A stretch of 64,000 nt of DNA from Pseudomonadota bacterium. Lineage in GTDB: Bacteria; Pseudomonadota; Alphaproteobacteria; Micavibrionales; UBA2020. The notes below the pieces were generated by a model. The model did not search any database. It had not been told where the DNA came from and worked only from the letters and a program-made list of their open reading frames with translations. Shown here piece by piece: positions 14,221 to 49,634 of this stretch. Each line of letters opens with the position of its first letter. Position 1 is the stretch's first letter. The DNA lies in contig JAJZTA010000002.1 in assembly GCA_021849295.1 (NCBI GenBank), positions 51,989 to 115,988 of the forward strand. Reading direction: 5' to 3'. The translations under genes and the position numbers were made by a program.

Positions 14221-15282
14221 TTACATCCCCGGTAAAGCGTGATTATAAAGCAAGGTGCCCGCGACGATGACGACCCAGACGAGCGTGAAAGGCAAAAACA
14301 CCTTCCAGCCGAGGCGCATCAGCTGGTCGTAGCGGTAGCGCGGCAGGGTGCCGCGCGCCCAGAGGAAGATGAAGAGGATAAAGCAGACCTTCAGCGTGAA
14401 CCACATCACGCCCGGCACGAACGCCAGCGCATGCAGACCGAACGGCGGCAGCCAGCCGCCGAGGAACAAAATCGTCGCGGTGCCGGAGAGCAAAATCATG
14501 TTGAGATATTCGCCGAGGAAGAACAGCGCGAAGGTCATCGCCGAATATTCGACGTTGTAGCCGCCGACCAGTTCCGACTCGCCCTCGGGCAGGTCGAACG
14601 GCGCGCGGTTGGTCTCCGCCAGCGCGGAAATGACGTAGATCACGAACATCGGGAACAAGAGCACCGACACCCACCACGGACGGTGGACGGTGACGATATC
14701 CGTCATGTTGAGCGAGCCCGTCGCCAGCATCACGGCGACGATGACGAAGCCCATCGAGACTTCATAAGAGATCATCTGCGCGGCGGAGCGCATGCCGCCC
14801 AGAAACGCATAGCGCGAGTTCGACGCCCAGCCCGCGACGATGATGCCGTAAACGCCGAGCGAAGAGATGGCGAAGATATAAAGCATGCCGACGTTGATAT
14901 TGGCGAGCACCAGCCCCTTGCCGACGGGGATCACCGCCCACGCCACCAGACTTAAGGCGAAGGTGATCATCGGTGCAATAATAAAGAGCGTTTTGTCCGC
15001 GCCGGTCGGGATGATGGTTTCCTTGGAAAAGAGCTTGATGCCGTCGGCGAAGGCCTGCAGCAAGCCGTAAGGCCCGACCATCATCGGGCCTTGTCTTAAT
15101 TGGATCGCGCCCAGCACTTTGCGCTCGGCATAAGTCAGATACGCCATGATGACCAGCAGCGGCACGACCAGCGCGAGGATTTTGACGATAATCCACGCCA
15201 CCGGCACGATATAGACCGCGACGAACGGGAATTCCTTCAAAAACGCGGCGACGGCGGGAATGTGCAGGAACCAATCAAGCAT
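14221..15282 (-). CDS. nuoH: NADH-quinone oxidoreductase subunit H
   Basis: 353-aa polytopic protein ([32 protein letters not shown]). Confidence 0.92.
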
Positions 15283-15296
15283 GTGTCAGCCTCCTC

Positions 15297-15354
15297 CGCC
15301 ACGCCGGACTTGTTCCGGCGTCCATATGGATGCCGCAATAAATGCGGCATGGCG
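15297..15354. repeat. 58-nt structured palindromic intergenic element, copy A (nuoG-nuoH spacer)
   Basis: cgccacgccggacttgttccggcgtccatatggatgccgcaataaatgcggcatggcg. Two internal hairpins (gccgga-cttgt-tccggc; gccgca-ataaa-tgcggc) are closed by an outer stem (cgccacgcc / ggcatggcg). It ends right at the nuoH Shine-Dalgarno. Confidence 0.8.
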
Positions 15355-15371
15355 GTTTAATATTTATGCTT

Positions 15372-17408
15372 CTATCCATTTGCCACCGCCTTCTCGTCAT
15401 CGGCCGGTTTCGCGTTCAAAAACGCCTCCGTGCAGGCCTGCATGGTCTTGGAGGCGCGGGAGATCGGGTCGGTCATGTAGAAGTTTGCGACCGTCGTGCC
15501 GAACGGCTTGGCATCGCACTTGCCCGCCTTGCCGAACGCCGACCATTTGACGGGCTGGATTTCGTCCACTTTGGCGAAGGCGGCGTTTTCTTCAGCCAGA
15601 CGCGCGCGCACCTGCGGCAGCGTGGCGTAAGGCAGCTTATGTCCCAGCGCGACGGCGAGATTGACAATGATCTGCCAGTCCTCGCGCGCCTCGCCCGGCG
15701 GGAAGACCGCCTGCAGGCCGTTTTGCACGCGGCCTTCGGTGTTGACGTAGGTCGCGCTCTTTTCGGTATAGGCCGCGCCCGGCAAAATCACGTCCGCGCG
15801 CGCGGCAACCTTTTCACCATGATGTCCCTGATAAACGACGAAGCAGTCGGGCTTGATGTTCTCGACCGGCATTTCGTCCGCGCCGAGCAGATAGAGCGCG
15901 TCCACTTTCTGCCACGACGCCTCGTCGCCCTCGACGAAGCCGAGCATCAGCGCGCCGACGCGCGACGCCTGCGTGTGCAGCATGTTGTAGCCGTTCCAGC
16001 CGTCGCGCGCCATGTTGAACTTTTCGGCGACCTTGCGGGCGAGCGCGGTGATGGCATAGCCGTCGGGGCGGCGCAGCGCGCCCGCGCCGAGAATGATCAT
16101 CGGGTTTTTGGCCTTGGCGAGCACGTCGGCGAAATCGCCCTTGCCCTCGCTCAGCTCCGCCAGCGTATCCGGCCCCGCGCCGAGGTATTTATAGGGATAG
16201 TTGAGGTCGATCTTTTGCCCGATCACGCCGACCTTGATATGTTTCGCCAGCCACGTCTTGCGGATGCGGGCGTTGACCAGCGCGGCCTCGGTGCGCGGGT
16301 TGGTGCCGACCAGCAAAATGGCGTCCGCGCGCTCGATGCCGGCGATGGTGGTGTTGAAAAGATAGCCCGCCGGATGCTTGACGTCGATCTGCGCCATGTC
16401 CTGACGGCACTCGAGGTTGGTCGCGCCCAGTTCCTTCATCAGGTCTTTCAGCGCGATAATGGACTCGCAATCGGCGAGATCGCCGACGATGGCGCCGAAG
16501 GTGCGCTTTTTCGCTTCTGCGGCGATGGCGCCGAACGCCTCTTCCCACGAGGCGGGCTGAAGCTTGCCATTCTTGCGCACGTAGCATTTGTCGAGGCGGT
16601 TGTTCTTGAGACCGTCGACGGCAAAACGCGTCTTGTCCGAGATCCACTCCTCGTTCACGTCTTCATGCAAACGCGGCAGGATGCGCATGACCTCGCCGCC
16701 GCGCGCGTCGATGCGGATGTTGGAGCCAACGGCGTCGAGAACGTCAATGCCCGGGGTCTTGCGCAGCTCCCACGGGCGCGCGGCGAAAGCGTAAGGCTTG
16801 CTCGTCAGCGCGCCGACGGGGCAGACGTCGATGAGGTTGCCGGACAGCTCCGACGTCACCATCTGCTCGACGTAGGTGCCGATTTCGAGATGCTCGCCGC
16901 GGTTCAGCACGCCGAGTTCGCTCACCCCCGCGATTTCCTCGCCGAAGCGCACGCAGCGCGTGCACTGGATGCAGCGCGTCATGACGGTTTTGACCAGCGG
17001 GCCGAGGTCCTTGTTGGTCACGGCGCGTTTTTCTTCCTCATAGCGCGAGCGGTCGTAACCGTAGGCCACTGCCTGATCCTGCAGGTCGCACTCGCCGCCC
17101 TGATCGCAGATGGGGCAATCCAGCGGGTGGTTGACGAGCAGCATTTCCATCACGTTCTTGCGCGCCTGTTTCGCCTTTTCGGATTGCGTGTAAACCTTCA
17201 TCCCGTCGCCGCAGGGCAACGCGCAAGACGCCATGGGCTTGGGCGACTTTTCCACCTCGACGAGGCACATGCGGCAGTTCGCCGGCACGGAAAGCTTGTC
17301 GTGATAGCAAAAGCGCGGGATCTCGATCCCGACCTGCTCCGCCGCCTGAATGATCGACGTCCCCGGCTCTACGGTGACTTCAATATCGTCTATGGTCAGT
17401 TTAGGCAT
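15372..17408 (-). CDS. nuoG: NADH-quinone oxidoreductase subunit G (75-kDa Fe-S subunit)
   Basis: 678 aa. N-terminal 2Fe-2S/4Fe-4S cysteine clusters (CYHDKLSVPANCRMCLVE, CIQCTRCVRF). Confidence 0.92.
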   Translation of the reverse strand: MPKLTIDDIEVTVEPGTSIIQAAEQVGIEIPRFCYHDKLSVPANCRMCLVEVEKSPKPMASCALPCGDGMKVYTQSEKAKQARKNVMEMLLVNHPLDCPICDQGGECDLQDQAVAYGYDRSRYEEEKRAVTNKDLGPLVKTVMTRCIQCTRCVRFGEEIAGVSELGVLNRGEHLEIGTYVEQMVTSELSGNLIDVCPVGALTSKPYAFAARPWELRKTPGIDVLDAVGSNIRIDARGGEVMRILPRLHEDVNEEWISDKTRFAVDGLKNNRLDKCYVRKNGKLQPASWEEAFGAIAAEAKKRTFGAIVGDLADCESIIALKDLMKELGATNLECRQDMAQIDVKHPAGYLFNTTIAGIERADAILLVGTNPRTEAALVNARIRKTWLAKHIKVGVIGQKIDLNYPYKYLGAGPDTLAELSEGKGDFADVLAKAKNPMIILGAGALRRPDGYAITALARKVAEKFNMARDGWNGYNMLHTQASRVGALMLGFVEGDEASWQKVDALYLLGADEMPVENIKPDCFVVYQGHHGEKVAARADVILPGAAYTEKSATYVNTEGRVQNGLQAVFPPGEAREDWQIIVNLAVALGHKLPYATLPQVRARLAEENAAFAKVDEIQPVKWSAFGKAGKCDAKPFGTTVANFYMTDPISRASKTMQACTEAFLNAKPADDEKAVANG

Positions 17409-17421
17409 CGTGAACGCGCTC

Positions 17422-18705
17422 CTACGCTACCAGCTTGCTGCGGTATTCTTTGATCCGCCGTTCCATTTCGGGGCGGAAGTGGTTGATCAAGCCCTGTATC
17501 GGCCACGCCGAGGCGTCGCCGTGGGCGCAGATGGTGTGACCCTCGATCTCGCGGCCGATGTCGAGCAGCATGTCGATTTCGTCGAGTCGCGCCTCCCCGC
17601 GCACCATGCGCTGCATGATGCGATACATCCAGCCCGTGCCCTCGCGGCATGGCGTGCACTGGCCGCAGCTTTCGTGCCAGTAGAAGCGCGCCAGGCGCGC
17701 GATGGCGTAAACGATGTCGGTCGACTTGTCCATGACGATGATCGCCGCGGTGCCGAGACCGGAGTTCTGCTCGCGCAGGGCGTCGAAATCCATCAGCACC
17801 GTGTCGCAAACGCTTTTCGGCAGCAGACGCGTGGACGAGCCGCCGGGAATGACCGCCAGAAGGTTGTCCCACCCGCCGCGCACGCCGCCGCCGTGTTTTT
17901 CGATGATCTCCTTCAGCGGCACGCTCATCGCCTCCTCGACGTTGCAGGGCGTGTTGACGTGCCCGGAGATGCAGAACAGTTTCGTGCCGCTGTTTTTCTC
18001 GCGCCCGAAGCTCGCGAACCACGACCCGCCGCGCTTGACGATTTCCGGCACGACGGCGATGGTCTCGACGTTGTTGACCGTCGTCGGGCAGGCATAAAGC
18101 CCCGCGCCGGCGGGAAACGGCGGCTTGTTGCGCGGCATGCCCTTTTTGCCTTCAAGGCTGTTCAAGAGGGCTGTTTCCTCGCCGCAAATGTACGCGCCCG
18201 CGCCGCGGTGCACATAGATATCGAAGTCCCAGCCGGAACCGCAGGCGTTTTTGCCGACCAGACCCGCTTCATAGGCCTCGTCGATGGCGGTTTGCAGGGC
18301 TTCCGCCTCGCGCATGAACTCGCCGCGGATATAAATATAGCAGGCGTGCGCGCGCATCGCGTAGCTCGCCAGCAGCGCGCCCTCGATCAGGCGGTGCGGC
18401 TCGTGGCGGATGATGTCGCGGTCCTTGCAGGTGCCGGGCTCGGATTCGTCGGCGTTGATGACGAGGTAGTTGGGGCGGCCGTCCTTGGATTCCTTGGGCA
18501 TGAACGACCATTTCATCCCCGTGGGGAAGCCCGCGCCGCCGCGGCCGCGCAAGCCGGAGTTTTTCACTTCCTCGATGATCCAGTCCTGTCCCTTGGCCAT
18601 GACCTCTTTCGTGCCCGCCCAGACGCCGCGTTCTTTCGCCGCCTTGAGGGTCGGCCAGTCCCAGCCGTAGATGTTGGTGAATATCCTGTCCTTGTCGTCT
18701 AGCAT
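17422..18705 (-). CDS. nuoF: NADH-quinone oxidoreductase subunit F (51-kDa FMN/NADH-binding)
   Basis: [19 protein letters not shown] and [12 protein letters not shown] motifs. Confidence 0.93.
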
Positions 18706-18878
18706 CCCGTTTCTCCGGTCAAAATCTCGCGCACCGACGACGCCCGCTGCAGGCAGGCGTCATGCCCGCAGGTCGCGGACCGCGCAGGCGTCTCCGACGG
18801 CGGCGCGGCCAGTCCCGCGCTTTCGCCGCGCGGGGAAAAGACGCGGGCGCGCCCGCTCATGTTCATGGGTGATTTCAT
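18699..18878 (-). CDS. Possible 59-aa unidentified reading frame bridging nuoE and nuoF
   Basis: [59 protein letters not shown]. Its ATG overlaps the nuoE stop (AAATGAAA) and its stop overlaps the nuoF start (GGATGCTAG). Low-complexity composition, so it could be a chance ORF in GC-rich spacer. Confidence 0.3.
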
Positions 18879-19504
18879 TTCTCGATCCCCGCTTTCCTGG
18901 CCTGCTCTCCAAGCGTGGTCGGCCCCTTGGCGCCCATGGATTTGACGCGGCCGGTCTGCGAGCCGGGCTTGGCCTTGCCCGCCTTGATGTCGTCGAGAAC
19001 CTTGACGACGTTTTCGGGCGTCAGGTCTTCGTAAAAATCGTCGCCGTTGTGCTGGAACACTGGCGCGTTGACGCAAGCGCCGAGGCATTCGACGTCGGAC
19101 AAATGAAACTCGCCGTCCGGCGTGGTTTCGCCGAGATGGATGCCGAGATGCTTTTCGCACGCGCGCACCACCTCGCCCGAGCCCGCCAGCCAGCACGGCG
19201 TGGTGGTGCAGAACTGGATGTGGTGCTTGCCCTTGGGGCTAAGGTTGTACATCGTGTAGAACGTCGCGACTTCGAAGACCTTGACGCGCGGCATGTCGAG
19301 GATGCGCGCGATCTCTTCCATCGCCGCTTCTGGAATCCAGCCGTCGTGCTGCTCCTGCGCGAGGGTCAAAAGCGCCATCACCGCGCTGGCCTGACGGCCC
19401 TTCGGGTATTTGGCGATATGCTTTTCGACCTTGGCCATGTTCTCTTTGGAGAACTTGAAGTCTTTCGGCTGTTCGAAATCGACTTTATGCGACACTGCGG
19501 ACAT
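18875..19504 (-). CDS. nuoE: NADH-quinone oxidoreductase subunit E (24-kDa 2Fe-2S)
   Basis: 209 aa. FCTTTPCWLAGS and CLGACVNAP cysteine motifs. About 40-aa C-terminal extension. Confidence 0.92.
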   Translation of the reverse strand: MSAVSHKVDFEQPKDFKFSKENMAKVEKHIAKYPKGRQASAVMALLTLAQEQHDGWIPEAAMEEIARILDMPRVKVFEVATFYTMYNLSPKGKHHIQFCTTTPCWLAGSGEVVRACEKHLGIHLGETTPDGEFHLSDVECLGACVNAPVFQHNGDDFYEDLTPENVVKVLDDIKAGKAKPGSQTGRVKSMGAKGPTTLGEQARKAGIEK

Positions 19505-19516
19505 TGATCACCTCCC

Positions 19517-19574
19517 CGCCACGCCGCATTTATTGCGGCGTCCATATAGATTCCGGAACAAGTCCGGCATGGCG
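19517..19574. repeat. 58-nt structured palindromic intergenic element, copy B (nuoD-nuoE spacer), inverted relative to copy A
   Basis: cgccacgccgcatttattgcggcgtccatatagattccggaacaagtccggcatggcg. Its reverse complement matches copy A at about 51/58 positions. It ends at the nuoE Shine-Dalgarno. Confidence 0.8.
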
Positions 19575-19590
19575 TCCAATATAGAACTGT

Positions 19591-20778
19591 TCATCGGTCA
19601 ATCTCCCCGAAAACGATATCCAGCGATCCGATGATCGCCACGACGTCGGCCAGCATGTGGCCGCGGCTCATGAAATCCAGCCCCTGCAGGTGCGCGAAGC
19701 CGGGCGCGCGGATGTGGCAGCGGTAGGGCTTGTTGCTGCCGTCCGCCACCAGATAGACGCCGAATTCGCCCTTCGGCGCCTCGACGACGGAATAGGTTTC
19801 GCCCGCGGGCACGTGATAACCCTCGGTATAAAGCTTGAAGTGGTGGATCAGCGCTTCCATCGAGTTTTTCATGTCGGCGCGGCGCGGCGGAGAAATCTTG
19901 TGGTCGTCCGTCAGCACGAGGCCTTCCGGCATTTGCTCGATCGCCTGCTCCATGATGCGGCAGGACTGGCGCATTTCCTCCATCCGCACGAGGTAGCGCG
20001 CGTAGCAGTCGCCGGTTTTGCCCACCGGCACGTCGAAGTCCATCTTGTCATACACGTCGTAGGGCTGCGACTTGCGCAAGTCCCACGCCACGCCGGAAGC
20101 GCGCAGCATCGGGCCGGAGAAGCTCCAATCCAGCGCTTCTTCTTTGGTGACGATGCCGATGTCGACCATGCGCTGCTTGAAGATGCGGTTTTCGGTCAGC
20201 AGGGTCTCGGTGTCGTCGACGAAATGCTTGAAGTTCTCGACGAACTTCGCCATGTCCTCCAGCAAACCGTCCGGCAAGTCCTGATGGACGCCGCCGGGGC
20301 GGAAATAGTTGGCGTGCAGGCGCGCGCCGCAGACGCGCTCGTAAAATTCCATCATCCGCTCGCGCTCTTCGAAACCCCACAGCGCGGGGGTGATGCCGCC
20401 GATGTCGAGCACGCCGGTGGTGATGCTGAGGACGTGGTTCAAGAGACGCCCCAGTTCCGCGAACAGCACGCGGATATATTGCGCGCGGAGCGGCGCTTCG
20501 ATCCTGAGCAGTTTTTCAACCGCCAAGGCGAAAGCATGTTCCTGATTCATCGTGCCGACATAGTCGAGACGGTCGAAATACGGGATGGCCTGCAGGTAGG
20601 TCTTGTTCTCGATCAGCTTTTCGGTGCCGCGGTGCAAAAGGCCGATGTGCGGGTCGGCGCGCTCGATCACCTCGCCGTCCATTTCGAGGATGAGGCGCAG
20701 AACGCCGTGCGCCGCGGGGTGCTGCGGACCGAGGTTGATCGTATAAGTGTTTTTCTTTTCGGGGATGATGTCGGTCAT
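19591..20778 (-). CDS. nuoD: NADH-quinone oxidoreductase subunit D (49-kDa)
   Basis: 395 aa ([26 protein letters not shown]). Separate from nuoC, not fused. Confidence 0.93.
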
Positions 20779-22492: not shown

Positions 22493-22569
22493 TGGCGCGA
22501 GTGAAGGGACTTGAACCCTCGGCCTCCTGCGTGACAGGCAGGCGCTCTAACCAGCTGAGCTACACCCGC
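22493..22569 (-). tRNA. tRNA-Asp (anticodon GTC)
   Basis: Reverse complement GCGGGTGTAGCTCAGCTGGTTAGAGCGCCTGCCTGTCACGCAGGAGGCCGAGGGTTCAAGTCCCTTCACTCGCGCCA. Cloverleaf checked by hand, anticodon loop CTGTCAC, CCA encoded. Confidence 0.92.
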
Positions 22570-22716: not shown

Positions 22717-23091
22717 ATGAAGAAGACGACAATTGGGGCCATATCCGTTATTTCCTGTTTCGCCGCGCTGGCCGGCCTTTCCGCCTGCGCGCCGCAGACC
22801 ATGCAGAAAACACAGGATTTCTTTAACAATATCCCTATTTTCAGTGATCTGCGCGGCTATGTACCCAAATATACGCCGCCTCCCGCGCCCGCTCCCGCGC
22901 CCGCTCCGGCGCCTGTGGCAGCGCCCGCGCCTGCTGCTGCGCCTGCTCCGGCGCCAATTCCTCTTGCGCCGCCCAAAGCCGCGAAAAAGGCCGACAAGAA
23001 CGACGGCATGATTATTCCGGACATCCGTCCCCTGCCGCCGGCGCGCAAGCTGCCGAAGCATGTGCATGAAGACCTGCTGGACGGTTCGTAA
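22717..23091 (+). CDS. Putative lipoprotein with Pro/Ala-rich low-complexity core
   Basis: MKKTTIGAISVISCFAALAGLSAC has a lipobox-like LSAC. Followed by PPPAPAPAPAPAPVAAPAPAAAPAPAPIPLAPP. The track ORF starts at TTG 22681; I prefer ATG 22717. Confidence 0.6.
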   Translation: MKKTTIGAISVISCFAALAGLSACAPQTMQKTQDFFNNIPIFSDLRGYVPKYTPPPAPAPAPAPAPVAAPAPAAAPAPAPIPLAPPKAAKKADKNDGMIIPDIRPLPPARKLPKHVHEDLLDGS

Positions 23092-23253: not shown

Positions 23254-24645
23254 ATGACTCCGTCCATCAAAGCACTCAACTTCTACCGCAACATCAAGGG
23301 CCGCTGGGCGCTGATGCTGTTTTTCTTCAAGTGGGACGCCGACTACCGCAAGGACCTGCTGACCACGATACTGACCTTCGTCGTGCTCATCTACGAGGTC
23401 GTCTCGTGGATGACGATCGCCGACATCATCGCCGCGATGGTCGACGCGGGCATCATCTACATCCAGCTCGGCGGCGACATGACCGTCATCCCCTCGGACT
23501 ACCGCCCTTCGCATGGCGGCGTGCCCTATACGACCGCGCTCAGCCACCACATCGCCTTTCACGAGCTGAGCGTCCCGATGGCCGAGGTGCTGCCCGCGCC
23601 GGTGGAGGACGAACTGGGCTTTTGCAATCCGGTCAACGCGATCAAGACCTGCAAGGAGAGCCCGCTGGTCAGCGACCGCGTCGACGACGCGCTGATGCTG
23701 CGCGAGAAAATGCCGTGGCGCGAGGACAACACGCCGATCAACTTCATCTTCTCGCGGCACCAATTGAGGTATATCGCCATCCGCGTGCTGAACAGGCTGC
23801 AGCACACCACCAACGGCAAGCTGCTGGCCTTTCAGGACATGGCGGACGCGATCGCCGATCCGGAGCGCACCGTCACCCTGCGCAAGGCCTATTATTACGA
23901 CGGGCTGATGACGGTGGAGGCCTTCCGCAGCCGCATCTTCCGCGGCAACCTGCAGCATGAGACGGAGGTCTTCACCGACCTCACCAGCTATTTTCCGGTG
24001 AACCGGGAGATGAAGGACGACGAGAGCTTTTTGCGCTTCCGCCCCGACATGCTGAAGCGCGCCTCGCTGCACATCGGCATCACCAGCCTCCTGCTGACCG
24101 AGAACAACCGCGTCGCCCTGCTCTATCAGGGCTCGACCAAGGCCGTGGGCGCGCACGAGGTCTGCCTCGGCGGCTCGGGCTCGCTCGAATACGCCGACAT
24201 CAAGCGCGCCGGCAACCCCGCCGATTTCCGCGAGCTGGCGGCCTGGGCCATGGCGCGCGAGGTCTGCGAGGAGACCGGCATGATGGAATCGATCGACGAG
24301 GCCTATGCCAACACCATCGTCACGGGCTTCTTCCGCTGGATCGACCGCTGCGGCCTGCCGGAGTTCGTCGGCCTGACGCGCGCCGGCACCGTGCCCTACG
24401 CGCAGGACCGCGCCATCGACGGCGACGAGGTCATCCACTTCGAGGAAGTGCCGATCAACGTCGACGGGCCGGAGGACTTCCCCGCCGTGATGGACTATAT
24501 CCGCACCAACGGCATCTGCGTCTCACTCTCCTCGCTCATGGCGCTGCACCGGATGACGGTGATCGCCGGCTACGGCGCGAAAGACGCCACCGACGAACAG
24601 AAGCAGATCTACCAGCGCGTCTCGAGCTTCATCAAGGGGCGCTAG
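23254..24645 (+). CDS. Hypothetical membrane-anchored protein with divergent Nudix-box C-terminal domain (paralog 1)
   Basis: 463 aa. Hydrophobic aa ~35-72. Conserved unassigned middle region. C-terminal HIGITSLLLTENNRVALLYQGS..CLGGSGSLE-[22 aa]-REVCEETGM (REUxEExGU half of the Nudix box at nt 24256..24282). Confidence 0.75.
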   Translation: MTPSIKALNFYRNIKGRWALMLFFFKWDADYRKDLLTTILTFVVLIYEVVSWMTIADIIAAMVDAGIIYIQLGGDMTVIPSDYRPSHGGVPYTTALSHHIAFHELSVPMAEVLPAPVEDELGFCNPVNAIKTCKESPLVSDRVDDALMLREKMPWREDNTPINFIFSRHQLRYIAIRVLNRLQHTTNGKLLAFQDMADAIADPERTVTLRKAYYYDGLMTVEAFRSRIFRGNLQHETEVFTDLTSYFPVNREMKDDESFLRFRPDMLKRASLHIGITSLLLTENNRVALLYQGSTKAVGAHEVCLGGSGSLEYADIKRAGNPADFRELAAWAMAREVCEETGMMESIDEAYANTIVTGFFRWIDRCGLPEFVGLTRAGTVPYAQDRAIDGDEVIHFEEVPINVDGPEDFPAVMDYIRTNGICVSLSSLMALHRMTVIAGYGAKDATDEQKQIYQRVSSFIKGR

Positions 24646-24648
24646 CCC

Positions 24649-26040
24649 ATGTCCCCGCTCGTCAAACTCCTCAACATCTACCGCAATCTCAAAGGCCGCT
24701 GGGAGCTGCTGGTGTTTTTCTTCAAATGGGACTCCGACTACCGCAAGGACCTCAACACCACCATCCTCACCTTCGGCGTGCTGTTTTACGAGATCTGGGC
24801 CTGGACCACGATCTACGACATCATCGCCGCCATCGTGGACGCGGGCATCATCGCCATCCAGCTCGGCGGCGACCTGACCGTCATTCCGTCCGACTACCGC
24901 CCGTCGCACCGCGGCATCCCCTATACGACGACCGTCAGCACGCACGTCTCGCACGACGAGCTGAGCATCCCGATGGCCGAAATCCTGCCCACGCCGGCGG
25001 AGGACGCGCTGGGCTTTTGCAATCCGGTCAATGCGGTCAAGACCTGCAACGACAGCCCGCTCTCCAGCGACCGCGTCGACGACGCGCTGATGCTGCGCGA
25101 AAAAATGCCGTGGCGCGAGAACGCGGAGCCGATGAGCTTCATCTATTCGCGGCACCAATTGAGGTATATCGCCATCCGCGTCCTCAACAAGCGCCAGCAC
25201 ACGACCAACGGCACGCTGCTGGCCTTTCAGGGCAGCGCCGCCGCGCTGGTGGACGAAACGCAGCCGCTCGCCGTGCGCAAGGCGCGCTATTTCGACAGCC
25301 TGCTGACGATGGAAGCCTTCCGCAGCCGCATCTTCCGCGGCAACCTGCAGCATGAAACCGAAGTCTACACCGACCTCACCACCTATTTTCCCGTGCACAG
25401 GGAGAGAACCGACGGCAGGCACTTCCTGCGCTTCCGGCCGGACTTCGCGACGCGCACCTCGCAGCATATCGGCATCACCAGCCTCCTGCTGACCGAGAAC
25501 AACCGCGTCGCGCTACTCTATCAGGGCTCGACCAACGCCATCGGCGCGAACATGGTCTGCCTCGGCGGCTCGGGCTCGATGTCCTACGCCGACATGGCGC
25601 GCGCGGGATCCCCGGAGGATTTCCGCGACCTGCTCGCCTACAGCATGGCGCGCGAGGTCTGCGAGGAGACCGGCATGAAGAAATGGTTCGACGAGATCCG
25701 CGCCAACACCATCGTCACCGGCTTCTTCCGCTGGATCGACCGCAGCGGCAAGCCGGAATTCATCGGCCTGACGCGCGCGGGCAAAGTGCCCTTCTCGAAA
25801 CAACGCTCCATCGACGGCGACGAGACCGTCCGCTTCGAGGAAGTGCCCGTGCCGGTGAACAGGCCCGAGGACTTCAAGGACGTGCTCGCCTACCTACTCG
25901 AGAACCACATCCACACCGCGCTCTCCTCGCTCATGGCGCTCTACCGGATGACGGTGATCGCGGACTACGGCGCGGAGAGCGCTACGGCGGAACAGAAAAA
26001 AATCTACCGGCGCGTCGCGGATTTTCTCGCCGGTAAATAG
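24649..26040 (+). CDS. Hypothetical membrane-anchored protein with divergent Nudix-box C-terminal domain (paralog 2)
   Basis: 463 aa. About 70% identical to paralog 1 by eye with no indels. Starts 3 nt after the paralog 1 stop. REVCEETGM at nt 25651..25677. Confidence 0.75.
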   Translation: MSPLVKLLNIYRNLKGRWELLVFFFKWDSDYRKDLNTTILTFGVLFYEIWAWTTIYDIIAAIVDAGIIAIQLGGDLTVIPSDYRPSHRGIPYTTTVSTHVSHDELSIPMAEILPTPAEDALGFCNPVNAVKTCNDSPLSSDRVDDALMLREKMPWRENAEPMSFIYSRHQLRYIAIRVLNKRQHTTNGTLLAFQGSAAALVDETQPLAVRKARYFDSLLTMEAFRSRIFRGNLQHETEVYTDLTTYFPVHRERTDGRHFLRFRPDFATRTSQHIGITSLLLTENNRVALLYQGSTNAIGANMVCLGGSGSMSYADMARAGSPEDFRDLLAYSMAREVCEETGMKKWFDEIRANTIVTGFFRWIDRSGKPEFIGLTRAGKVPFSKQRSIDGDETVRFEEVPVPVNRPEDFKDVLAYLLENHIHTALSSLMALYRMTVIADYGAESATAEQKKIYRRVADFLAGK

Positions 26041-26159
26041 CTTATATACCGGACATATTCGTTTCCATATCGCATTTACAAAAACATTGCGCCGCGCGGC
26101 TGATTTTGCTAATTTCCCTATTCATTCAAAATAAAGCCGCACACCAAGAAGGACACCTC

Positions 26160-26954
26160 ATGGGCATTTTCAAAGATTACTTCAAGATCGGCAAGACGGC
26201 GCCGCCGGAGGAATTCCTCAAGACCTACAAAAGCAAGGCGAAGAATACCGATTACAACAACAACGCCAGCGACATGATCGCCGGCGCGCTGAAAGCCTTC
26301 GGCGAAGGCCAGCCCACCAACGTGCAGGCCATCCTCTCCCATGTGCAGGAGCTGGAAAGCTACAACTACAGCAACATGGCCACGCGCGTCCTCAGCCAGC
26401 TGCCCGAAAAATTCGGCGGCAAGGACAAGGACCTCGAAATGGCGCTCGCCGAACTGCCGGAGAAGGACAGAAAGGATTTCCTCAGCAAGGCGCTCTATAC
26501 CGCCGTCAACTACCGCATCGGCGACGACAAGTTCTGCGAGCTGCTGCTGAAGGCGGGCGCGGACGCCAACTACGCCGTCGGCGGACACGCGGGCATCATG
26601 CTCGTGGTCGCCACCTGCAACCAGCAATCCATGAACGTGATCAAGCTGCTGCACGAACACGGCGCGAGCTTCGACGACGCGCTGATGACCATGCACTGCC
26701 AGAACAGAAGGAACGACGACATCGAACGCCTGAAGTTCTTCCAGCAAAAGCTGACCGGCGCCGCGGAGCAAAAGCCCGCCGGGCTGGCCTCGCCCGACCT
26801 GCAGTCGGACGACGTGCGCGTGCTGCTGGCGGAAATCCTCGAGCAGATGAAAGAAATCACCAAACGCCTGCCGCCCCTGCCGGAAGACCAACAGGACGCC
26901 GCGCAGCCGAAGATCAAAAAGCCGGATGTGGGCAAGGGGTATCCGAAGCTGTAA
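26160..26954 (+). CDS. Ankyrin-repeat-containing protein
   Basis: 264 aa from ATG 26160. LYTAVNYRIGDDKFCELLLKAGADANYAVGGHAGIMLVVATCNQQSMNVIKLLHEHGASFDDAL reads as two ANK repeats. No signal peptide. Confidence 0.6.
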   Translation: MGIFKDYFKIGKTAPPEEFLKTYKSKAKNTDYNNNASDMIAGALKAFGEGQPTNVQAILSHVQELESYNYSNMATRVLSQLPEKFGGKDKDLEMALAELPEKDRKDFLSKALYTAVNYRIGDDKFCELLLKAGADANYAVGGHAGIMLVVATCNQQSMNVIKLLHEHGASFDDALMTMHCQNRRNDDIERLKFFQQKLTGAAEQKPAGLASPDLQSDDVRVLLAEILEQMKEITKRLPPLPEDQQDAAQPKIKKPDVGKGYPKL

Positions 26955-44146: not shown

Positions 44147-45505
44147 CTACCTTTCCCGCAGCGCCGTCTCCGAAGCGTTGATGAAGGGCTTGAGCAGATA
44201 TTGCATGACCGTCCTTTTGCCGGTCACGACATCGACCGTCGCCTGCATGCCGGGAATGATGGGATAGCTCCTGCCGTTCTTCTTTAAGCTGGATTCATCG
44301 GTGCGGACCTTGACGTGGTAGAAGCTCTCGCCCTTTTCGTTCGTCGTGCTGTCGGGGCTGATTTCCACGACGCGGCCCTTGAGCGCGCCGTAAACCGAGA
44401 AATCATAGGCCGACAGGCGCACGATGGCCTTCTGCTCCGGATGGATGAAGGCGATGTCGGAGGGCTTGATGAGGGTCTCGACGATCAACTGCCCCTCGCG
44501 CGGCACGATCTCCATGATCGGCTCGCCCGGCTTGATCACGCCGCCGACCGTCCTGATCCTGATGTTCATGACGGTGCCGTAGACGGGCGAGCGGATTTCG
44601 GTGCGGCGGCTCTTGTCCCTCAGCGCCGCCAGCGTCGCCTTCAGCGCGTTGAGATCGACCATCATCCTGGACAGATGCCGCTGCGCGTCGGCCTTGAACG
44701 TGCTTTCCTGTTCGGCGATGCGCCCCTCGGCCTCCTTCACTTCCGCCGCGGCCAGCGGCAGGGACTGCTCCAGCGCATCGAGATCTGCGCGCTTCTGGGC
44801 GATGTCGCTTTCGATCTGCAGCAGCTCCTCTCTCGAGGCCGACCCGCGTTTGACCATCGGCGCGACCATTTTTTTCCGCGCCTCGGACAGGTTGAGGACA
44901 CTGGCGACGTCGGCGATTTTCTTTTTCAGCCCGACGAGCTTCTGCTTTCTCTGCTCCAGTTGCTGTTGCAGCACGTCGAGCTGGCTTTGCAGCTGTTTTT
45001 CGCTTTGGGCGTAAGCGGCTGTTTCGGCGGTGACGGACCCGGGCGCGCCTTTCATAACGTCCGCAGGGAAGGTGAGCGGTGTCCCCGCCGCCTCCGCCTG
45101 CAAACGGGTGACCGTCGCCAGCATGCCGTAATATTTCCGGCTGTTGGCCTCGAGGTCGGATTTCGCCTGAATGTCGTTGAGACGCAGCAAAGGCTGTGCG
45201 GGCTCCACAGTGTCGCCCTCCTTCACCAGCATCTTCTCGACGATCCCGCCTTCGAGACTCTGGATCACCTGCACGTTGCCCGAGGGGATGACCTCGCCGC
45301 GCCCGCGCACGACTTCGTTAAGCGAAGAAAAGGCCGACCAGACGATGAACGAAAAAATGAACAGCGCCATCGCGTAAAGCAGCATATGGTCGCGCCACGG
45401 AATGCCGTCGGCGGCGGAAAAGTCGTCGTCGTATTTGCGCGTCAGGTCGAACTTGCGCAGATCGAATTCGCTGAAATCCAGTTTCTTTTTGATTTTTTTC
45501 AACAT
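44147..45505 (-). CDS. Type I secretion membrane-fusion protein (HlyD family)
   Basis: Start MLKKIKKKLDF. N-terminal TM, long coiled-coil and barrel-sandwich regions (GGIVEKMLVKEGDTV, RSPVYGTVMNIRIRTVGGVIKPGEPIMEIVP). Confidence 0.88.
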   Translation of the reverse strand: MLKKIKKKLDFSEFDLRKFDLTRKYDDDFSAADGIPWRDHMLLYAMALFIFSFIVWSAFSSLNEVVRGRGEVIPSGNVQVIQSLEGGIVEKMLVKEGDTVEPAQPLLRLNDIQAKSDLEANSRKYYGMLATVTRLQAEAAGTPLTFPADVMKGAPGSVTAETAAYAQSEKQLQSQLDVLQQQLEQRKQKLVGLKKKIADVASVLNLSEARKKMVAPMVKRGSASREELLQIESDIAQKRADLDALEQSLPLAAAEVKEAEGRIAEQESTFKADAQRHLSRMMVDLNALKATLAALRDKSRRTEIRSPVYGTVMNIRIRTVGGVIKPGEPIMEIVPREGQLIVETLIKPSDIAFIHPEQKAIVRLSAYDFSVYGALKGRVVEISPDSTTNEKGESFYHVKVRTDESSLKKNGRSYPIIPGMQATVDVVTGKRTVMQYLLKPFINASETALRER

Positions 45506-45509
45506 GCCT

Positions 45510-47684
45510 CTAAGCTCCCGCGCCCGCGCTGCGGTAAACGCCGGCCTGCAGATTTTTGATGACCGCGTCGCGCGGCCCCGCCGCGACAAGCCGGCCCCTG
45601 TCCATCAGGACGAGCTTGTCCGTCAGCTCGAGCGTTTCGCCCTTGTGCGTGACCAGCAGCACCGTCTTGCCCTTGACGACCTCTTTCAGGTAGGTCAGCA
45701 GCCGCCGCTCGGAGCCCGGATCGATCGAGGCCGTCGGCTCGTCGAGCAGCAGGATCGGCGGATTGTAAAGCAGCGCCCGCGCGATGGCGATCGCCTGCCG
45801 CTGGCCGCCGGACAGGCTTTCGCCGCGCTCGCCCACCTGCGTATCGAGACCGGCCTCGGACTCGCGCAGAAAGTTCATGACTCCCGCCATTTCCGCCGCA
45901 TGCAAAACAATGCTGTCCGGCACGGCTTCGTGGCCAAGCGTGATGTTCTCGCGCACCGAGCCGAAAAACAGATAAGGCGTCTGCTGCACGATGCCGATGT
46001 TGCGGCGCAAATCCGCGGGATCGATCTGGCGCACGTCGACGCCGTCGATCTGCACCGAGCCGCTCTCCGGCTGGTAGAGATTGAGGATCAAACGCTCGAT
46101 CGTCGTCTTGCCCGAGCCGACGGCGCCGATGATGCCCACATGGTCGCCGGGCGCGATCGTCATGCTGATCCCGTTGATGGCGGGCGTCTTCTGCTGCGGA
46201 TAGCGGAACACGACGTCGCGGAAGGCGATGCCGCCCTTCACCACCGGCATGCTGATGAAGGTCTGCCCCTGCGGCCTTTCGATCGGCTCGGCCATCAGCT
46301 TGTTGAGGCGCTCCAGCGATTCCCGCGACTGGCTGTATTTGGTCAGCAGCCCCGCGATCGATGCCAGCGGCGCCAGCGCGCGCCCCGAAAGCGTGGTCGA
46401 AGCGATCAGCGCGCCCATGCTAAGATGGCCCGCGACGATCATGTAGACGCCGTAGACGATCATCCCCACGTATGAAAAGCTGGCGCACGACGCGGCGAAG
46501 TTGACCCCGAAGGTCGAAATCGCGCGCGCCTTTATGTTCGTCAGCGAGGCCTTTTCCGTCAGTTCCTCCCACTTGCGCTGCATATGCCCTTCCGCCGCCT
46601 GCGCCTTGATGGTTTCAAGGCCGCTCAGGGTCTCGAAAACAAGCCCGCTTTTGAAGGCGTTTTCGCGGATCGATTCCCTGACGACCCTATCGAGCGGCTT
46701 TTGCAGCACATAGCCGACGGCGATGACGACCGGCACCAGCGCCGCCGGTATCGCCGCCACGGAGCCCGCGATCATCCAGATGATGAAGATGAACAATATA
46801 ATGAACGGAAAATCGATCACCGCCACGATCGTCGCCGAGGTGAAGAAATCGCGCAGGCTCTCGAATTCCCGCAAGTTGGCGGCATGCACGCCGACGCTGG
46901 GCGGGCGGGCCGCCATTTTCATGCCGAGCATCCGCTCGAAAATCCGCGCCGAGATCACATTGTCCGCCTTGCGCCCCGCCGTATCGACGAAATGGGCGCG
47001 CAAATTCCTCAGGATAAAGTCGAACAAAAAGACGATGCTGATGCCGATCGCCAGCACCCACAGCGAGGAAAAGGCGGCGTTGGGCAAAACGCGGTCATAG
47101 ATGTTCATCGCGAACAGGGGTGTCGACAGGGCGAGCAGATTGATCAGCAGCGCCGCCAGCGCGACTTCCCTGTAAACGCCTTTGTAGCGCCACAGCGCGC
47201 TCCAGAACCAGTCGCGCCCCTCTTCCGCCCGCTGCGGGCCCGCGCGGCTGTCGAGAAGCGCGCGCGGCCGCACGAAAAAGGCGTAGCCGCGGTATCTTTC
47301 GCGCAGCTCGTTCAACCCGACCTTCACCGCGGCGTCGGGCGTTTCGGGGAACAGAACCTCCGCGCCGTCTTCCGATTTGCCTTTCAGGATGCAGGCGTGG
47401 TTGCTGTTGAGAATCAGGATGCAGGGCAGGTTGACGCTGCCGATCAGGTCTTCCAGCGGACGCCGCACCATGCGCGCCGTCAGATTGATGCGGTCGGCCG
47501 CCCGCACGAAGGCCGAGGGCGCGGCCATTTGCGCGCCGTGCACCGGCAGCCCCGCCGACAGGGCGACCGCCGTCGTCCGCCGCCCGTACGACGCCGCCAC
47601 GATCGCCAGGCATTCCATCAGCGGATCGTCGAGAGAGATCATTTCCGCTTCGAGCGGCCAGCCGGTATGTTCCGTCTTTTCCAT
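45510..47684 (-). CDS. Type I secretion ABC transporter ATPase/permease with N-terminal C39-like domain (LssB-type)
   Basis: Track ORF trimmed to ATG 47684, which forms an ATGA overlap with the tolC-like stop. N-terminus DDPLMECLAIVAASYGRRTT, six-TM domain, Walker A GAVGSGKTT, LSGGQRQAIAIARAL. Confidence 0.88.
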   Translation of the reverse strand: MEKTEHTGWPLEAEMISLDDPLMECLAIVAASYGRRTTAVALSAGLPVHGAQMAAPSAFVRAADRINLTARMVRRPLEDLIGSVNLPCILILNSNHACILKGKSEDGAEVLFPETPDAAVKVGLNELRERYRGYAFFVRPRALLDSRAGPQRAEEGRDWFWSALWRYKGVYREVALAALLINLLALSTPLFAMNIYDRVLPNAAFSSLWVLAIGISIVFLFDFILRNLRAHFVDTAGRKADNVISARIFERMLGMKMAARPPSVGVHAANLREFESLRDFFTSATIVAVIDFPFIILFIFIIWMIAGSVAAIPAALVPVVIAVGYVLQKPLDRVVRESIRENAFKSGLVFETLSGLETIKAQAAEGHMQRKWEELTEKASLTNIKARAISTFGVNFAASCASFSYVGMIVYGVYMIVAGHLSMGALIASTTLSGRALAPLASIAGLLTKYSQSRESLERLNKLMAEPIERPQGQTFISMPVVKGGIAFRDVVFRYPQQKTPAINGISMTIAPGDHVGIIGAVGSGKTTIERLILNLYQPESGSVQIDGVDVRQIDPADLRRNIGIVQQTPYLFFGSVRENITLGHEAVPDSIVLHAAEMAGVMNFLRESEAGLDTQVGERGESLSGGQRQAIAIARALLYNPPILLLDEPTASIDPGSERRLLTYLKEVVKGKTVLLVTHKGETLELTDKLVLMDRGRLVAAGPRDAVIKNLQAGVYRSAGAGA

Positions 47685-49009
47685 CACTTCTCCATCCGTG
47701 CCGCGCGCGGCGGCGCGATGCCCAGAGCGCCCAGCATCTTTCCCTCGAGCGCCAGCAGGCGGTAAACCGCGAAAGCGGCGGCATAGGCTTCGTTCATATG
47801 ATTGCTGCGCGCGGCGATCAGCTCGTTTTGCGCGTCCAGCACGTCGAGCAGGGTGCGGCGGTTCATCTTGAACTGGTCGAGATAGACGATCACCACCTTC
47901 CTGTCGGCTTTCGACTGGTCCGAAAAATCCCTGGCGCGGATGCGGGCGGCATCCAGCGCCGCCTCCGTGTCGCGGAAGTCCTTTTCCACCTGCCGCGCCG
48001 CCTGCGCGGCGCGGGCCGTCGCCTCCAGATAGCGCTGCATGTATTCGCGCCGCCGGTCCTCGTCGCCGCCGCCGTGATAGAGGTTCCACGTCATCACGAC
48101 CAGCGCGGAAACGTTACGCTGGCTGCCTCTTATGCCGGATTCATTAAATCCGTCGGAGCCGTTCACCTCGAAATCCAGCTTGGGATACAGGGCCGCGCCC
48201 GTTTCCTTGTAGCCTTCGAGCGCGGATCTGGCCTTGGCGCGACTGATGGCCAGCGTCGGGTTGTTCAGCAAAGCTTCCTGCACGCCCATGTCTACGGTTT
48301 TGGGCAGGCGGTTGTCGGGCACGGCGGGCGGAAGAAGCGTTCCCGGCATTTCCCCCGTTTTCTGGAGAAAAAGGTCCTCGGCGGTGACCAGATCGCGCTG
48401 CACCGCCGCCACGGCGGCGCGGGCGTTGCCGAGGCGCGCCTCCACCTGCGCCACGTCCCCCGCCGTGCCGGTGCCGCCCTTGAAGCCCGCTTTTACGTTG
48501 TCCAGAATGACCAGATGGTCGTCGACGTTGACGCGGGCGATCTGCAGCAAGGCGCGCTGGCGCAGAACGTCCAGATAGGCCTGCACGATGTCGAGCCCGA
48601 GAAACTCGCTCACCTCGCGCACATGCTCGTCCGCGGACTCGAGCCCGTAAGCCTGCGACCTGATCAGGTGCGTCGTGCCGAAGCCGTCGAAAAGAAGCTG
48701 AGTCAGCGTCAGGGAACCCTGCCGCTCCCACAGGTTCTGCCGGTTGGGCAGAAGGATAGGCGAGACTGTCTGCTGCCGCCCGCCCTGCGCCTGAAGGTCC
48801 ACCGCCGGAAAGTAGCCGGATCCGGCCTGCAACAGTAATTGCCGCGCTTCATTCTTCTGGCGGGCGGCGACGCCGTATTCGGGGCTGGTGTCGATCCCGC
48901 GGCGCACCGCCTCCGCCAGCGTCAACGGCGCAGGCGGTAGCGCGGCATAAGCGGCCGCCGGCAGCAGCATGCCCAGAACAAGACACAGTTCCGCCAGTTT
49001 ACCCTTCAT
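47684..49009 (-). CDS. TolC-family outer-membrane efflux protein
   Basis: Signal peptide MKGKLAELCLVLGMLLPAAAYAA. Duplicated OEP repeats (LTLAEAVRRGIDTSPEY...). Confidence 0.85.
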   Translation of the reverse strand: MKGKLAELCLVLGMLLPAAAYAALPPAPLTLAEAVRRGIDTSPEYGVAARQKNEARQLLLQAGSGYFPAVDLQAQGGRQQTVSPILLPNRQNLWERQGSLTLTQLLFDGFGTTHLIRSQAYGLESADEHVREVSEFLGLDIVQAYLDVLRQRALLQIARVNVDDHLVILDNVKAGFKGGTGTAGDVAQVEARLGNARAAVAAVQRDLVTAEDLFLQKTGEMPGTLLPPAVPDNRLPKTVDMGVQEALLNNPTLAISRAKARSALEGYKETGAALYPKLDFEVNGSDGFNESGIRGSQRNVSALVVMTWNLYHGGGDEDRRREYMQRYLEATARAAQAARQVEKDFRDTEAALDAARIRARDFSDQSKADRKVVIVYLDQFKMNRRTLLDVLDAQNELIAARSNHMNEAYAAAFAVYRLLALEGKMLGALGIAPPRAARMEK

Positions 49010-49073
49010 AAAGCTGCTCTTTGAAAAAGAGCGTGGCGGAAGCCTGTATTTGTTGTAGAGCATGGCTGTTACA

Positions 49074-49634
49074 TCATATGCGCGCCGCGGAAAGGGTCTG
49101 TCCGGCATTGGTCGCGGCGCAGGAAGGAGCCGGCAACAGAAACGAAGCGCTTTTTTGCGGCGTGTCCAACATCTCCTGCAACTGCCCGCGCGCGCGGGAA
49201 AGACGCGAGCGCACGGTGCCGACGGGGATCTTCAGCCTCTGGGCGACCTCCTCGTAGCGCAGGCCCTGAATGCAGACGAGCACCAGAATATTGTGATGTT
49301 CCGGCCGCAAGCGCTTCATCGTCGACATGATCGTCGACAGATCCACCCTGTTTTCCTGACAGGAGTCCTCCGCGATCCGGTTGAGATAGAAATCGGGATC
49401 GTGCTGGAATTCGAACTTTTTCTCGTGACGGTATTGCGAGATGAAGATATTGAACATGATCGTCGACAGCCAGCTGAAAAGATTGGTCCCCTCCTCGAAA
49501 TAGTCCTTCTTCTCCAGCGCCCGCAGGATGGTCGACTGCGACAAATCCTGCGCGTCGGAAGCGTTTCTCGTCAGGCGCAGCGCGAATTTGCGCAGGTTGA
49601 CTTCTTCGCGGACAAGCTCTTCCTGATATGACAT
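49074..49634 (-). CDS. ECF-type sigma-70 family factor
   Basis: Start MSYQEELVREE. Region 2 DAQDLSQSTILRAL..FSWLSTIMFNIFISQYR. Region 4 YEEVAQRLKIPVGTVRSRLSRARGQL. Ends 64 nt upstream of the tolC-like gene. Confidence 0.8.
   Translation of the reverse strand: MSYQEELVREEVNLRKFALRLTRNASDAQDLSQSTILRALEKKDYFEEGTNLFSWLSTIMFNIFISQYRHEKKFEFQHDPDFYLNRIAEDSCQENRVDLSTIMSTMKRLRPEHHNILVLVCIQGLRYEEVAQRLKIPVGTVRSRLSRARGQLQEMLDTPQKSASFLLPAPSCAATNAGQTLSAARI

Follow-up and report, generated by a model that had tools for sequence, protein, structure and literature searches.

Among the described repetitive extragenic palindromic (REP) sequences, those of the CGTC superfamily are defined by a 4-nt tag (with variants such as TGTC and CCTC), a stem of 8-9 bp that begins with A-T/T-A, a loop of 4-5 nt and a CCA tail present in all families (Di Nocera, De Gregorio and Rocco, 2013, PMC3733652). 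According to that description, CGTC REPs occur predominantly as head-to-head dimers, often as heterodimers, in mainly alphaproteobacterial hosts, typically between co-directional genes near the stop codon of the upstream gene and in some cases in frame within genes; families comprise tens to thousands of copies, they are reported to lack an associated transposase, and RPE-4 and RPE-6 are classed as CGTC REPs. Investigation of a 64,000-nt stretch of an alphaproteobacterial genome (lineage UBA2020; assembly GCA_021849295.1, contig JAJZTA010000002.1, positions 51,989 to 115,988), referred to below as the window, revealed two copies of a 58-nt palindromic repeat within the nuo operon, which encodes complex I. 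Each copy reads as a compact head-to-head heterodimer, tags outside, of two 29-nt units of the CGTC superfamily, non-autonomous and resembling a REPIN (REP doublet forming a hairpin), and the best explanation of the whole, in which considerable confidence can be placed, is that these dimers were recently inserted and are tolerated as selfish DNA and not maintained as a selected regulator.

Copy A of the 58-mer lies exactly at 15,297-15,354 and copy B at 19,517-19,574, the positions given in an earlier note on this DNA, and both are read here on the reverse strand, which is the strand of the nuo mRNA. Matches to copy A with up to three mismatches are expected by chance 0 times (100 shuffles), and the pair forms the longest and best inverted repeat of the window (59 nt at 90% complementarity, with 72% for the runner-up). 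The identity of the two copies is 52/58 in inverted alignment, a recount of the approximately 51/58 reported before, and 48/58 in direct alignment. No third 58-mer, whole or degenerate, was detected within the window by an inverted-repeat scan or by nhmmer with a profile of the unit, and the profile revealed no additional copy in the other loci to which it was applied.

Each half of the 58-mer has the 29-nt layout CGCC-A(T/C)GCCG(C/G)A-5 nt-T(G/C)CGGC(A/G)T-CCA, in which a tag of 4 nt is followed by a stem of 8 bp with A-T as its first pair, closing a loop of 5 nt, and by the tail CCA. On the mRNA strand copy A consists of CGCCAUGCCGCAUUUAUUGCGGCAUCCAU and AUGGACGCCGGAACAAGUCCGGCGUGGCG, joined end to end; parsed by the CGTC REP definition, its unit a (15,326-15,354, reverse strand) has the tag CGCC, the stem AUGCCGCA/UGCGGCAU, the loop UUUAU and the tail CCA, and its unit b (15,297-15,325, forward strand) the tag CGCC, the stem ACGCCGGA/TCCGGCGT, the loop CTTGT and the tail CCA. 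The unit a stem ATGCCGCA/TGCGGCAT, with 8 bp and AT first, fits the superfamily rule, as do the loops of all copies, each of 5 nt (TTTAT, CTTGT, CTGGT, ACAAG, ATGAA, ATGAG and ATAAA). Six loci of the 58-mer are known in all, two in the window and four in metagenomes (L009, L015, L020 and L048). All six copies are head-to-head with tags at both outer ends, their partner units differing in the loops and in the fifth stem pair (C-G vs G-C), and the tail after the stem is CCA in all units of the six copies except one of copy B, which has CTA; the two units abut directly as CCA-TA-TGG. The tags are CGCC in the window copies, L015 and L048, CGCC and CACC in L020, and the canonical TGTC and CGTC in L009.

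At the level of the single unit, relatives are present in cultured Hyphomicrobiales, and those with the canonical CGTC tag on Rhizobium and Terrarubrum plasmids differ only slightly from the window type. The unit CGTC-ATGCCGGA-CTTGT-TCCGGCAT-CCA on a plasmid of Rhizobium sp. ACO-34A agrees with either window-type unit at 25/29 positions. Units of the ACO-34A type form a head-to-head dimer with a structured spacer in Agrobacterium pusense, where the unit identity is 23/29, and a Terrarubrum plasmid has the unit CGTC-ATGGCCGGA-CTTGT-TCCGGCCAT-CCA with a 9-bp stem and a loop shared with the window unit. As for the host, the nearest homologues carry the name Alphaproteobacteria bacterium. The repeat had been described as a REP- or MITE-like element (MITE, miniature inverted-repeat transposable element); the unit parsing and the relatives in Rhizobium, Agrobacterium and Terrarubrum bear out the REP part and allow the class to be named. 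With respect to the features of a MITE, the whole element is palindromic and ATG flanks both nuo inserts, and no consistent duplication was found in L015, where approximately 16 nt were replaced, or in L048.

A separate observation concerns the 254-aa protein P0254, found by exhaustive protein search, which is evidently the translation of clustered REP units. Peptides of CGTC-1 type (IPAKAGIQ) and CGTC-3-like peptides (GRRVKPGM) occur in it beside MDAGSSPAWRR, which back-translates to a window-like CGCC-tagged unit and suggests, by back-translation only, that CGCC units occur beside CGTC-1-like ones.

Regarding the further copies, a metagenome scan gave 14 matches, among which the 58-mer has true relatives only in L009, L015 and L020, and a peptide search yielded the sixth copy, in L048, which matches copy A at 57/58 positions and derives from an ENA study shared with a relative whose NuoH is 94% identical to that of the window. 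The copy in L009 lies between rarA (mgsA) and crcB, and that in L020 between leuC and leuD, immediately 5' of the leuD Shine-Dalgarno sequence. In L048 the copy is located just 3' of an ATG overlapping the pfkB stop codon, at the 5' end of a gene for a solute-binding protein and in frame with its signal peptide, and in L015 it is present in frame (2509-2566) inside the gene of an HI0933-like flavoprotein, which has 407 aa compared with 393 aa in the closest homologues lacking the copy (net gain 14 residues); alignment with the DNA of an empty-site homologue shows approximately 16 nt in a surface loop swapped for the 58-mer. The A+T-rich flank in L015 and the GAGACAA repeat were considered as parts of the element and rejected, as the flank is native coding sequence in the empty-site homologue. 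The G+C content of the metagenome loci is 54-59%, compared with 61% for the window. A word-indexed protein search with concatenated REP-encoded peptides matched only P0241 and the L015 protein; an exhaustive HMMER search with the peptide of the open reading frame (ORF) that spans copy A, described below, returned three unrelated repeat translations and the REP cluster P0254, and both matches from a scan of viral sequences were due to chance.

The surface loop occupied in L015 carries a different G+C-rich palindromic repeat (..CCCTCCCTCTCCCGCCCTGCGGGAGAGGGTTGGGGTGAGGG..), also in frame, in the HI0933-like homologue P0123 (L047, approximately 2370-2450), and a published list of intragenic REPs includes one at residues 162-168 of an HI0933-family protein of Opitutus. 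The loop has the look of a hot spot at which inserted repeats are tolerated.

Regarding the history of the two nuo copies, homologues of NuoH were traced to the contigs L002 (94% identity), L001 (92%) and L005 (86%). The genes concerned, all on the reverse strand, are nuoH (14,221-15,282; 353 aa, with homologues in PF00146 and 100% identical to P0251), nuoG (15,372-17,408; 678 aa, assigned by synteny and junction alignment with L001, L002 and L005, in which the NuoG Pfam families are found), nuoE (18,875-19,504; 209 aa, assigned by synteny with L001, PF01257, and junction alignment) and nuoD (19,591-20,778; 395 aa, assigned by synteny with L001, PF00346, and with a 3' end identical over approximately 60 nt). 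In the window nuoG and nuoH are separated by an 89-nt spacer (15,283-15,371, reverse strand), which comprises a 17-nt A+T-rich leader, the REP dimer A and a 14-nt trailer with a Shine-Dalgarno sequence, and nuoD and nuoE by an 86-nt spacer (19,505-19,590, reverse strand) with a 16-nt leader, the dimer B and a 12-nt trailer, again with a Shine-Dalgarno sequence. Both sites are empty in the relatives: nuoG and nuoH overlap by 8 nt (ATGCTTGA) in L001, L002 and L005, and nuoD and nuoE overlap by 4 nt (ATGA) in L001. Junction alignments of the window with these relatives show clean insertions directly 3' of the ancestral ATG, with the present start codon displaced from the ancestral one by 97 nt at nuoG/H and by 90 nt at nuoD/E.

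Because relatives with 86-94% identical NuoH have overlapping genes at both sites, both copies appear to be recent insertions and not conserved regulators. Gain in one lineage is favoured, since precise loss in three relatives, each restoring an overlapping start and stop, is far less likely. One dimer would thus have entered each of the two formerly overlapping nuo junctions after the split from the relatives with 92-94% identical NuoH, each insert bringing the dimer between a leader rich in A+T and a trailer that carries a strong Shine-Dalgarno sequence. The earlier note took a lack of further copies and of conservation in related genomes as a sign of chance local duplication; conservation of position is indeed lacking, and a family of the repeat does exist elsewhere.

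The inserts are arranged alike with respect to translation. At both junctions the palindrome begins 16-17 nt 3' of the upstream stop codon, which is the retained UGA in the case of nuoD and a UAG supplied two codons into the insert in the case of nuoG, and its 3' end lies directly at the downstream Shine-Dalgarno sequence, as had been noted before (..GGCGUGGCG-GAGGAGGCUGACAC-AUG for copy A and ..GGCGUGGCG-GGGAGGUGAUCA-AUG for copy B). The new Shine-Dalgarno sequence of nuoH, GAGGAGG (15,290-15,296, reverse strand), abuts the 3' end of the dimer 7 nt before the AUG at 15,280-15,282, and that of nuoE, GGGAGG (19,511-19,516, reverse strand; GGGGAGG with the last REP base), abuts copy B 6 nt before the AUG at 19,502-19,504; their predicted mean unpaired probabilities in context are 0.45 and 0.21, respectively. 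No U-tract follows either hairpin (GAGGAGG and GGGAGG follow), neither site was called by an intrinsic-terminator scan, and no sigma-70 promoter was detected by a scan at either site.

The dimers would be co-transcribed within the nuo mRNA, folding into a stable hairpin or a cruciform-like structure of -30 to -39 kcal/mol. Transcription would be expected to continue through them because there is no U-tract, and terminating ribosomes would be unobstructed because of the distance at which the hairpin starts beyond the upstream stop. Translation of the downstream genes may be secured by the new Shine-Dalgarno sequence just 3' of the structure, and possibly also by a mini-ORF spanning the REP dimer. 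Such co-transcription, and any effect on mRNA stability, we infer. Classical enterobacterial intercistronic REPs protect upstream mRNA from 3' exonucleases, and by analogy a side effect of the nuo dimers as a barrier to these enzymes is plausible. Since close relatives have empty sites and the sequence turns up elsewhere in unrelated surroundings, the insertions are judged to be tolerated selfish DNA with its harm neutralised, and not a selected regulator. They are largely an ordinary selfish-DNA event, and the preserved translation around them is a modest curiosity. What they illustrate is that even the overlapping starts and stops of complex I genes, the tightest places of an essential operon, are open to a selfish palindromic repeat that leaves the operon intact, each insert bringing a nearby stop codon, a fresh and strong ribosome-binding site and an open frame over the palindrome; unless the relay proposal described below is right, the finding mainly adds a compact CGCC-tagged variant from uncultured alphaproteobacteria to a known REP superfamily.

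Several observations weigh against this interpretation as recently inserted CGTC-superfamily dimers. The tag is CGCC, not CGTC, at 9/12 unit ends, and CGCC pairs here with the partner tag; the 8-bp stem of unit b has AC/GT and not AT/AT at its base (its second pair is C-G, not T-A). The compact dimer was not found in 185,579 species-representative genomes by two scans, in which the two-hairpin pattern gave 0 matches and the centre CGGCRTCCATATGGAYGCCG gave 22, all of them chance terminators or coding sequence. Just two copies are present in 64 kb, both in the nuo operon, and none was found by the nhmmer unit profile in approximately 50 kb of close relatives (L001-L007). Finally, the flanks of the two nuo copies are alike in direct orientation (65/89), a likeness more in keeping with the copying of an entire cassette than with transposition of a bare 58-mer.

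Such copying would also bear on the make-up of copy B, which is a mosaic isomer with private substitutions at positions 23 and 27. Six asymmetries between the arms serve as orientation markers for the copies. Relative to the mRNA, two of them, 6/53 (U.G) in the outer stem and 24/35 (A x C) at the centre, read alike in both copies, and the four within the sub-hairpins, 11/48, 13/46, 16/43 and 19/40, are inverted in copy B. The opposite orientations ascribed to the two copies therefore apply to the two sub-hairpins, which are swapped and inverted in B, and not to the outer stem, the centre and the flanks, which are direct. The mosaic could plausibly have arisen by nested inversions, each bounded by short inverted repeats where the hairpins have their base, or by patchy repair once two near-palindromic copies had paired in antiparallel fashion. 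If the whole cassette of leader, REP dimer and Shine-Dalgarno trailer at one nuo junction was the source of that at the other, or a third locus supplied both, through microhomology-mediated recombination at ATG with a later internal flip in one copy, two independent insertions of a bare 58-mer would not be needed. The spacers align slightly better directly than inverted (61/92 in the latter case), both leaders contain ATATT and both trailers GGAGG-TGA-CA, the markers of the outer stem and the centre agree in direct orientation, the two copies, the only ones in the 64 kb, fall within a 4.2-kb interval, and ATG stands on both sides of each insert. However, L048, L015, L009 and L020 share only the 58-nt core and not the flanks, which makes the core the conserved unit; the flank likeness is short and partly forced by function (Shine-Dalgarno sequence and ATG), and the right flanks resemble native sequence just 5' of the old start (CGGGGAGATTGACCGATG vs CGGGGAGGTGATCAATG, a very short match made by eye). 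Cassette copying is thus an unlikely account of the two inserts, though by no means a negligible one.

Open reading frames also run across the dimers. At the nuoG/H junction a putative mini-ORF of 34 codons and a stop (15,275-15,379, reverse strand) runs from the ancestral nuoH AUG to a UGA at the present nuoH start; its start overlaps the nuoG stop (AUGGAUAG), it crosses REP dimer A, and its UGA overlaps the nuoH start (AUGCUUGA), so that the geometry of its ends is that of the ancestral nuoG/nuoH overlap. The corresponding putative mini-ORF at nuoD/E, with 28 codons and a stop (19,508-19,594, reverse strand), runs from the ancestral nuoE AUG (AUGA with the nuoD stop), 5' of which the old Shine-Dalgarno sequence GGGGAG is still present, through REP dimer B in the nuoE frame to a UGA 3 nt before the present AUG (UGAUCAAUG). 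Analogous frames are found in L020 (UUGGCUGA ... AUGAAUAA) and in L009 (UGAUG ... UAA, with the stop 16 nt before the downstream start). Each of the four intercistronic copies is thus spanned by an ORF whose start overlaps the upstream stop and which ends at the downstream start or up to 16 nt before it.

From these frames it might be supposed that REP dimers of this family persist in operons only as translated 'relay' mini-cistrons, or in frame within genes as in L015 and L048. Ribosomes would then melt the hairpin and pass translational coupling on by termination and reinitiation, and an insertion splitting overlapping essential genes would become near-neutral. If true, a simple and testable rule would describe which places in polycistronic mRNAs tolerate REP-type repeats, and it would be clear why these repeats are so often stop-free and in frame in genes. 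The palindrome is itself stop-free in most frames, and when flanks and frame were shuffled such an ORF arose in proportions of 0.26, 0.22, 0.52 and 0.17 at the four intercistronic copies, with a product of approximately 0.005 in what is a post hoc test. The relay proposal is accordingly a tentative and rather doubtful one.

The role put forward in the earlier note was that of a selected RNA element, with the structure recruited within the nuo mRNA to stabilise a segment of it, to serve as a site of RNase processing or to insulate translational coupling. The structure is very stable: on either strand the minimum-free-energy fold is a single long imperfect hairpin of -26 to -39 kcal/mol with z-scores of -2.9 to -5.8, and the RNAalifold consensus of the six copies is a long hairpin too. 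The geometry at the two sites is nearly identical (stop, 16-17 nt, palindrome, Shine-Dalgarno, 6-7 nt, AUG), the outer-stem U.G is on the mRNA strand in both copies despite the flipped sub-hairpins of B, and the private C-to-U change of B preserves a U.G pair on that strand. Classical REPs were, moreover, first described as intercistronic regulatory elements, according to the titles in the reference list of PMC3184786.

The earlier note had favoured a cloverleaf fold, whose 9-bp outer stem consists of the two tags and stem bases of the inverted partner units, paired together. For the transcribed-strand copies and the metagenome copies with the 58-nt core, this three- or four-way structure is 3-10 kcal/mol less stable than the long hairpin, which rules it out on energy as the preferred fold and leaves it as a possible alternative one. 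Pair counts across copies do favour the two sub-hairpins: positions 11/48, 19/40 and 24/35 are unpaired in every copy in the long hairpin, and the four-way fold reaches 99% pairing and includes three compensatory pairs, a value matched by just 3/500 shuffles in this small sample. The covariation proposed as a check is thus present; however, two of the three compensatory pairs stem from one rearranged copy, and the covariation seen is equally expected for a palindrome at the DNA level. Both folds are expected of a dimer built from hairpin units.

The strand asymmetry is not consistently RNA-favouring, as the centre A x C mismatch is on the mRNA strand in both copies, and there is no Rfam match to the element: at gathering score tRNAs alone matched in the window, and the best local score in a permissive search was 21 bits against a threshold of 70. 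Conservation lends no support to a co-opted stabiliser, processing site or insulator, both junctions being without the element in relatives at 86-94% NuoH identity and the 58-mer occurring at unrelated loci, including inside two genes, and selection for an RNA function is therefore improbable. The 185,579 representative genomes without a match and the mere two copies in the window might be cited for local palindromes that arose by chance, or for an assembly artefact, without a wider family. Such an origin has a negligible probability, since shuffles gave an expectation of 0 matches, other assemblies and samples contain four independent near-identical copies, and cultured Hyphomicrobiales have clear unit-level relatives.

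Regarding the remainder of the nuo operon, the other junctions had been described as tight or overlapping, which does not hold for nuoE/nuoF: between nuoE and nuoF (17,422-18,705, reverse strand) there is a spacer of 169 nt (18,706-18,874, reverse strand), which lacks the element, is G+C-rich and contains a possible ORF of approximately 55 codons with a stop overlapping the nuoF start (AUGCUAG). At this position L001 has a DUF952 gene and L005 has none, and L005 has extra small ORFs in the nuoD/nuoE and nuoF/nuoG junctions. Since the nuoE/nuoF content differs among the window, L001 and L005, and L005 has these extra ORFs, small variable ORFs seem to come and go in the nuo operon. Upstream of nuoA and of a tRNA (22,496-22,569), tandem repeats of 12 and 18 nt (CCCGCGCCCGCT...) are present at 22,870-22,955, which would be Pro/Ala-rich if translated.

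The rest of the window has the character of ordinary core chromosome, with lon, hupB and phaC present together with polysaccharide genes and a type I secretion set. Tandem paralogues of 463 aa each are encoded on the forward strand at 23,254-24,645 and 24,649-26,040, with 80-84% nucleotide identity over 300-nt stretches, followed by a gene for a 282-aa protein (26,106-26,954, forward strand); neither the first 463-aa paralogue nor the 282-aa protein had a Pfam match at E<=1e-5. The type I secretion genes (HlyD, ABC transporter and OEP; 44,147-49,108) are located near the gene of a 1441-aa protein (52,986-57,311, forward strand) with an alginate-lyase domain, a GH16 domain and approximately eight Big_9/cadherin-like repeats, which are encoded by tandem repeats of 276-285 nt at 55,227-56,945.

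In comparison with described systems, the window units are nearest to the CGTC-2 and CGTC-3 formats, as given by Di Nocera, De Gregorio and Rocco (2013, PMC3733652). They share with these REPs the 29-nt unit, the G+C-rich 8-bp stem, the CTTGT loop, the CCA tail, the head-to-head heterodimers and the alphaproteobacterial hosts, as well as the location between co-directional genes less than 20 nt from the upstream stop, the occasional in-frame copies and, as far as the ORFs scanned show, the lack of a linked transposase. They differ in the tag, which is mostly CGCC instead of CGTC, TGTC or CCTC, in the AC/GT stem base of one partner, and in that the units abut, with their tails TA apart, to give a 58-nt nested palindrome, the form not found in the representative genomes. 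As in REPINs, two inverted REPs make up one hairpin-capable replicating unit with near-identical copies across genomes and loci (Bertels and Rainey, 2011, PMC3116915); RAYT-mobilised REPINs (RAYT, REP-associated tyrosine transposase), however, have GTAG-type tags, unlike the CGCC, CGTC or TGTC of the 58-mer, and no RAYT or other transposase was detected among the 30 non-nuo ORFs of the window that were scanned. Rickettsia palindromic elements are likewise tolerated in frame within genes, as the 58-mer is in L015 and L048, but have another sequence, whereas the hosts of the 58-mer are free-living or uncultured and both window copies are intercistronic. The enterobacterial intercistronic REPs of hisJ-hisQ and malE-malF, too, are stable, co-transcribed palindromes between cistrons of one operon; these are of GTAG type and lie in pre-existing spacers, whereas in the window the insert made the spacer, by splitting overlapping and translationally coupled genes.

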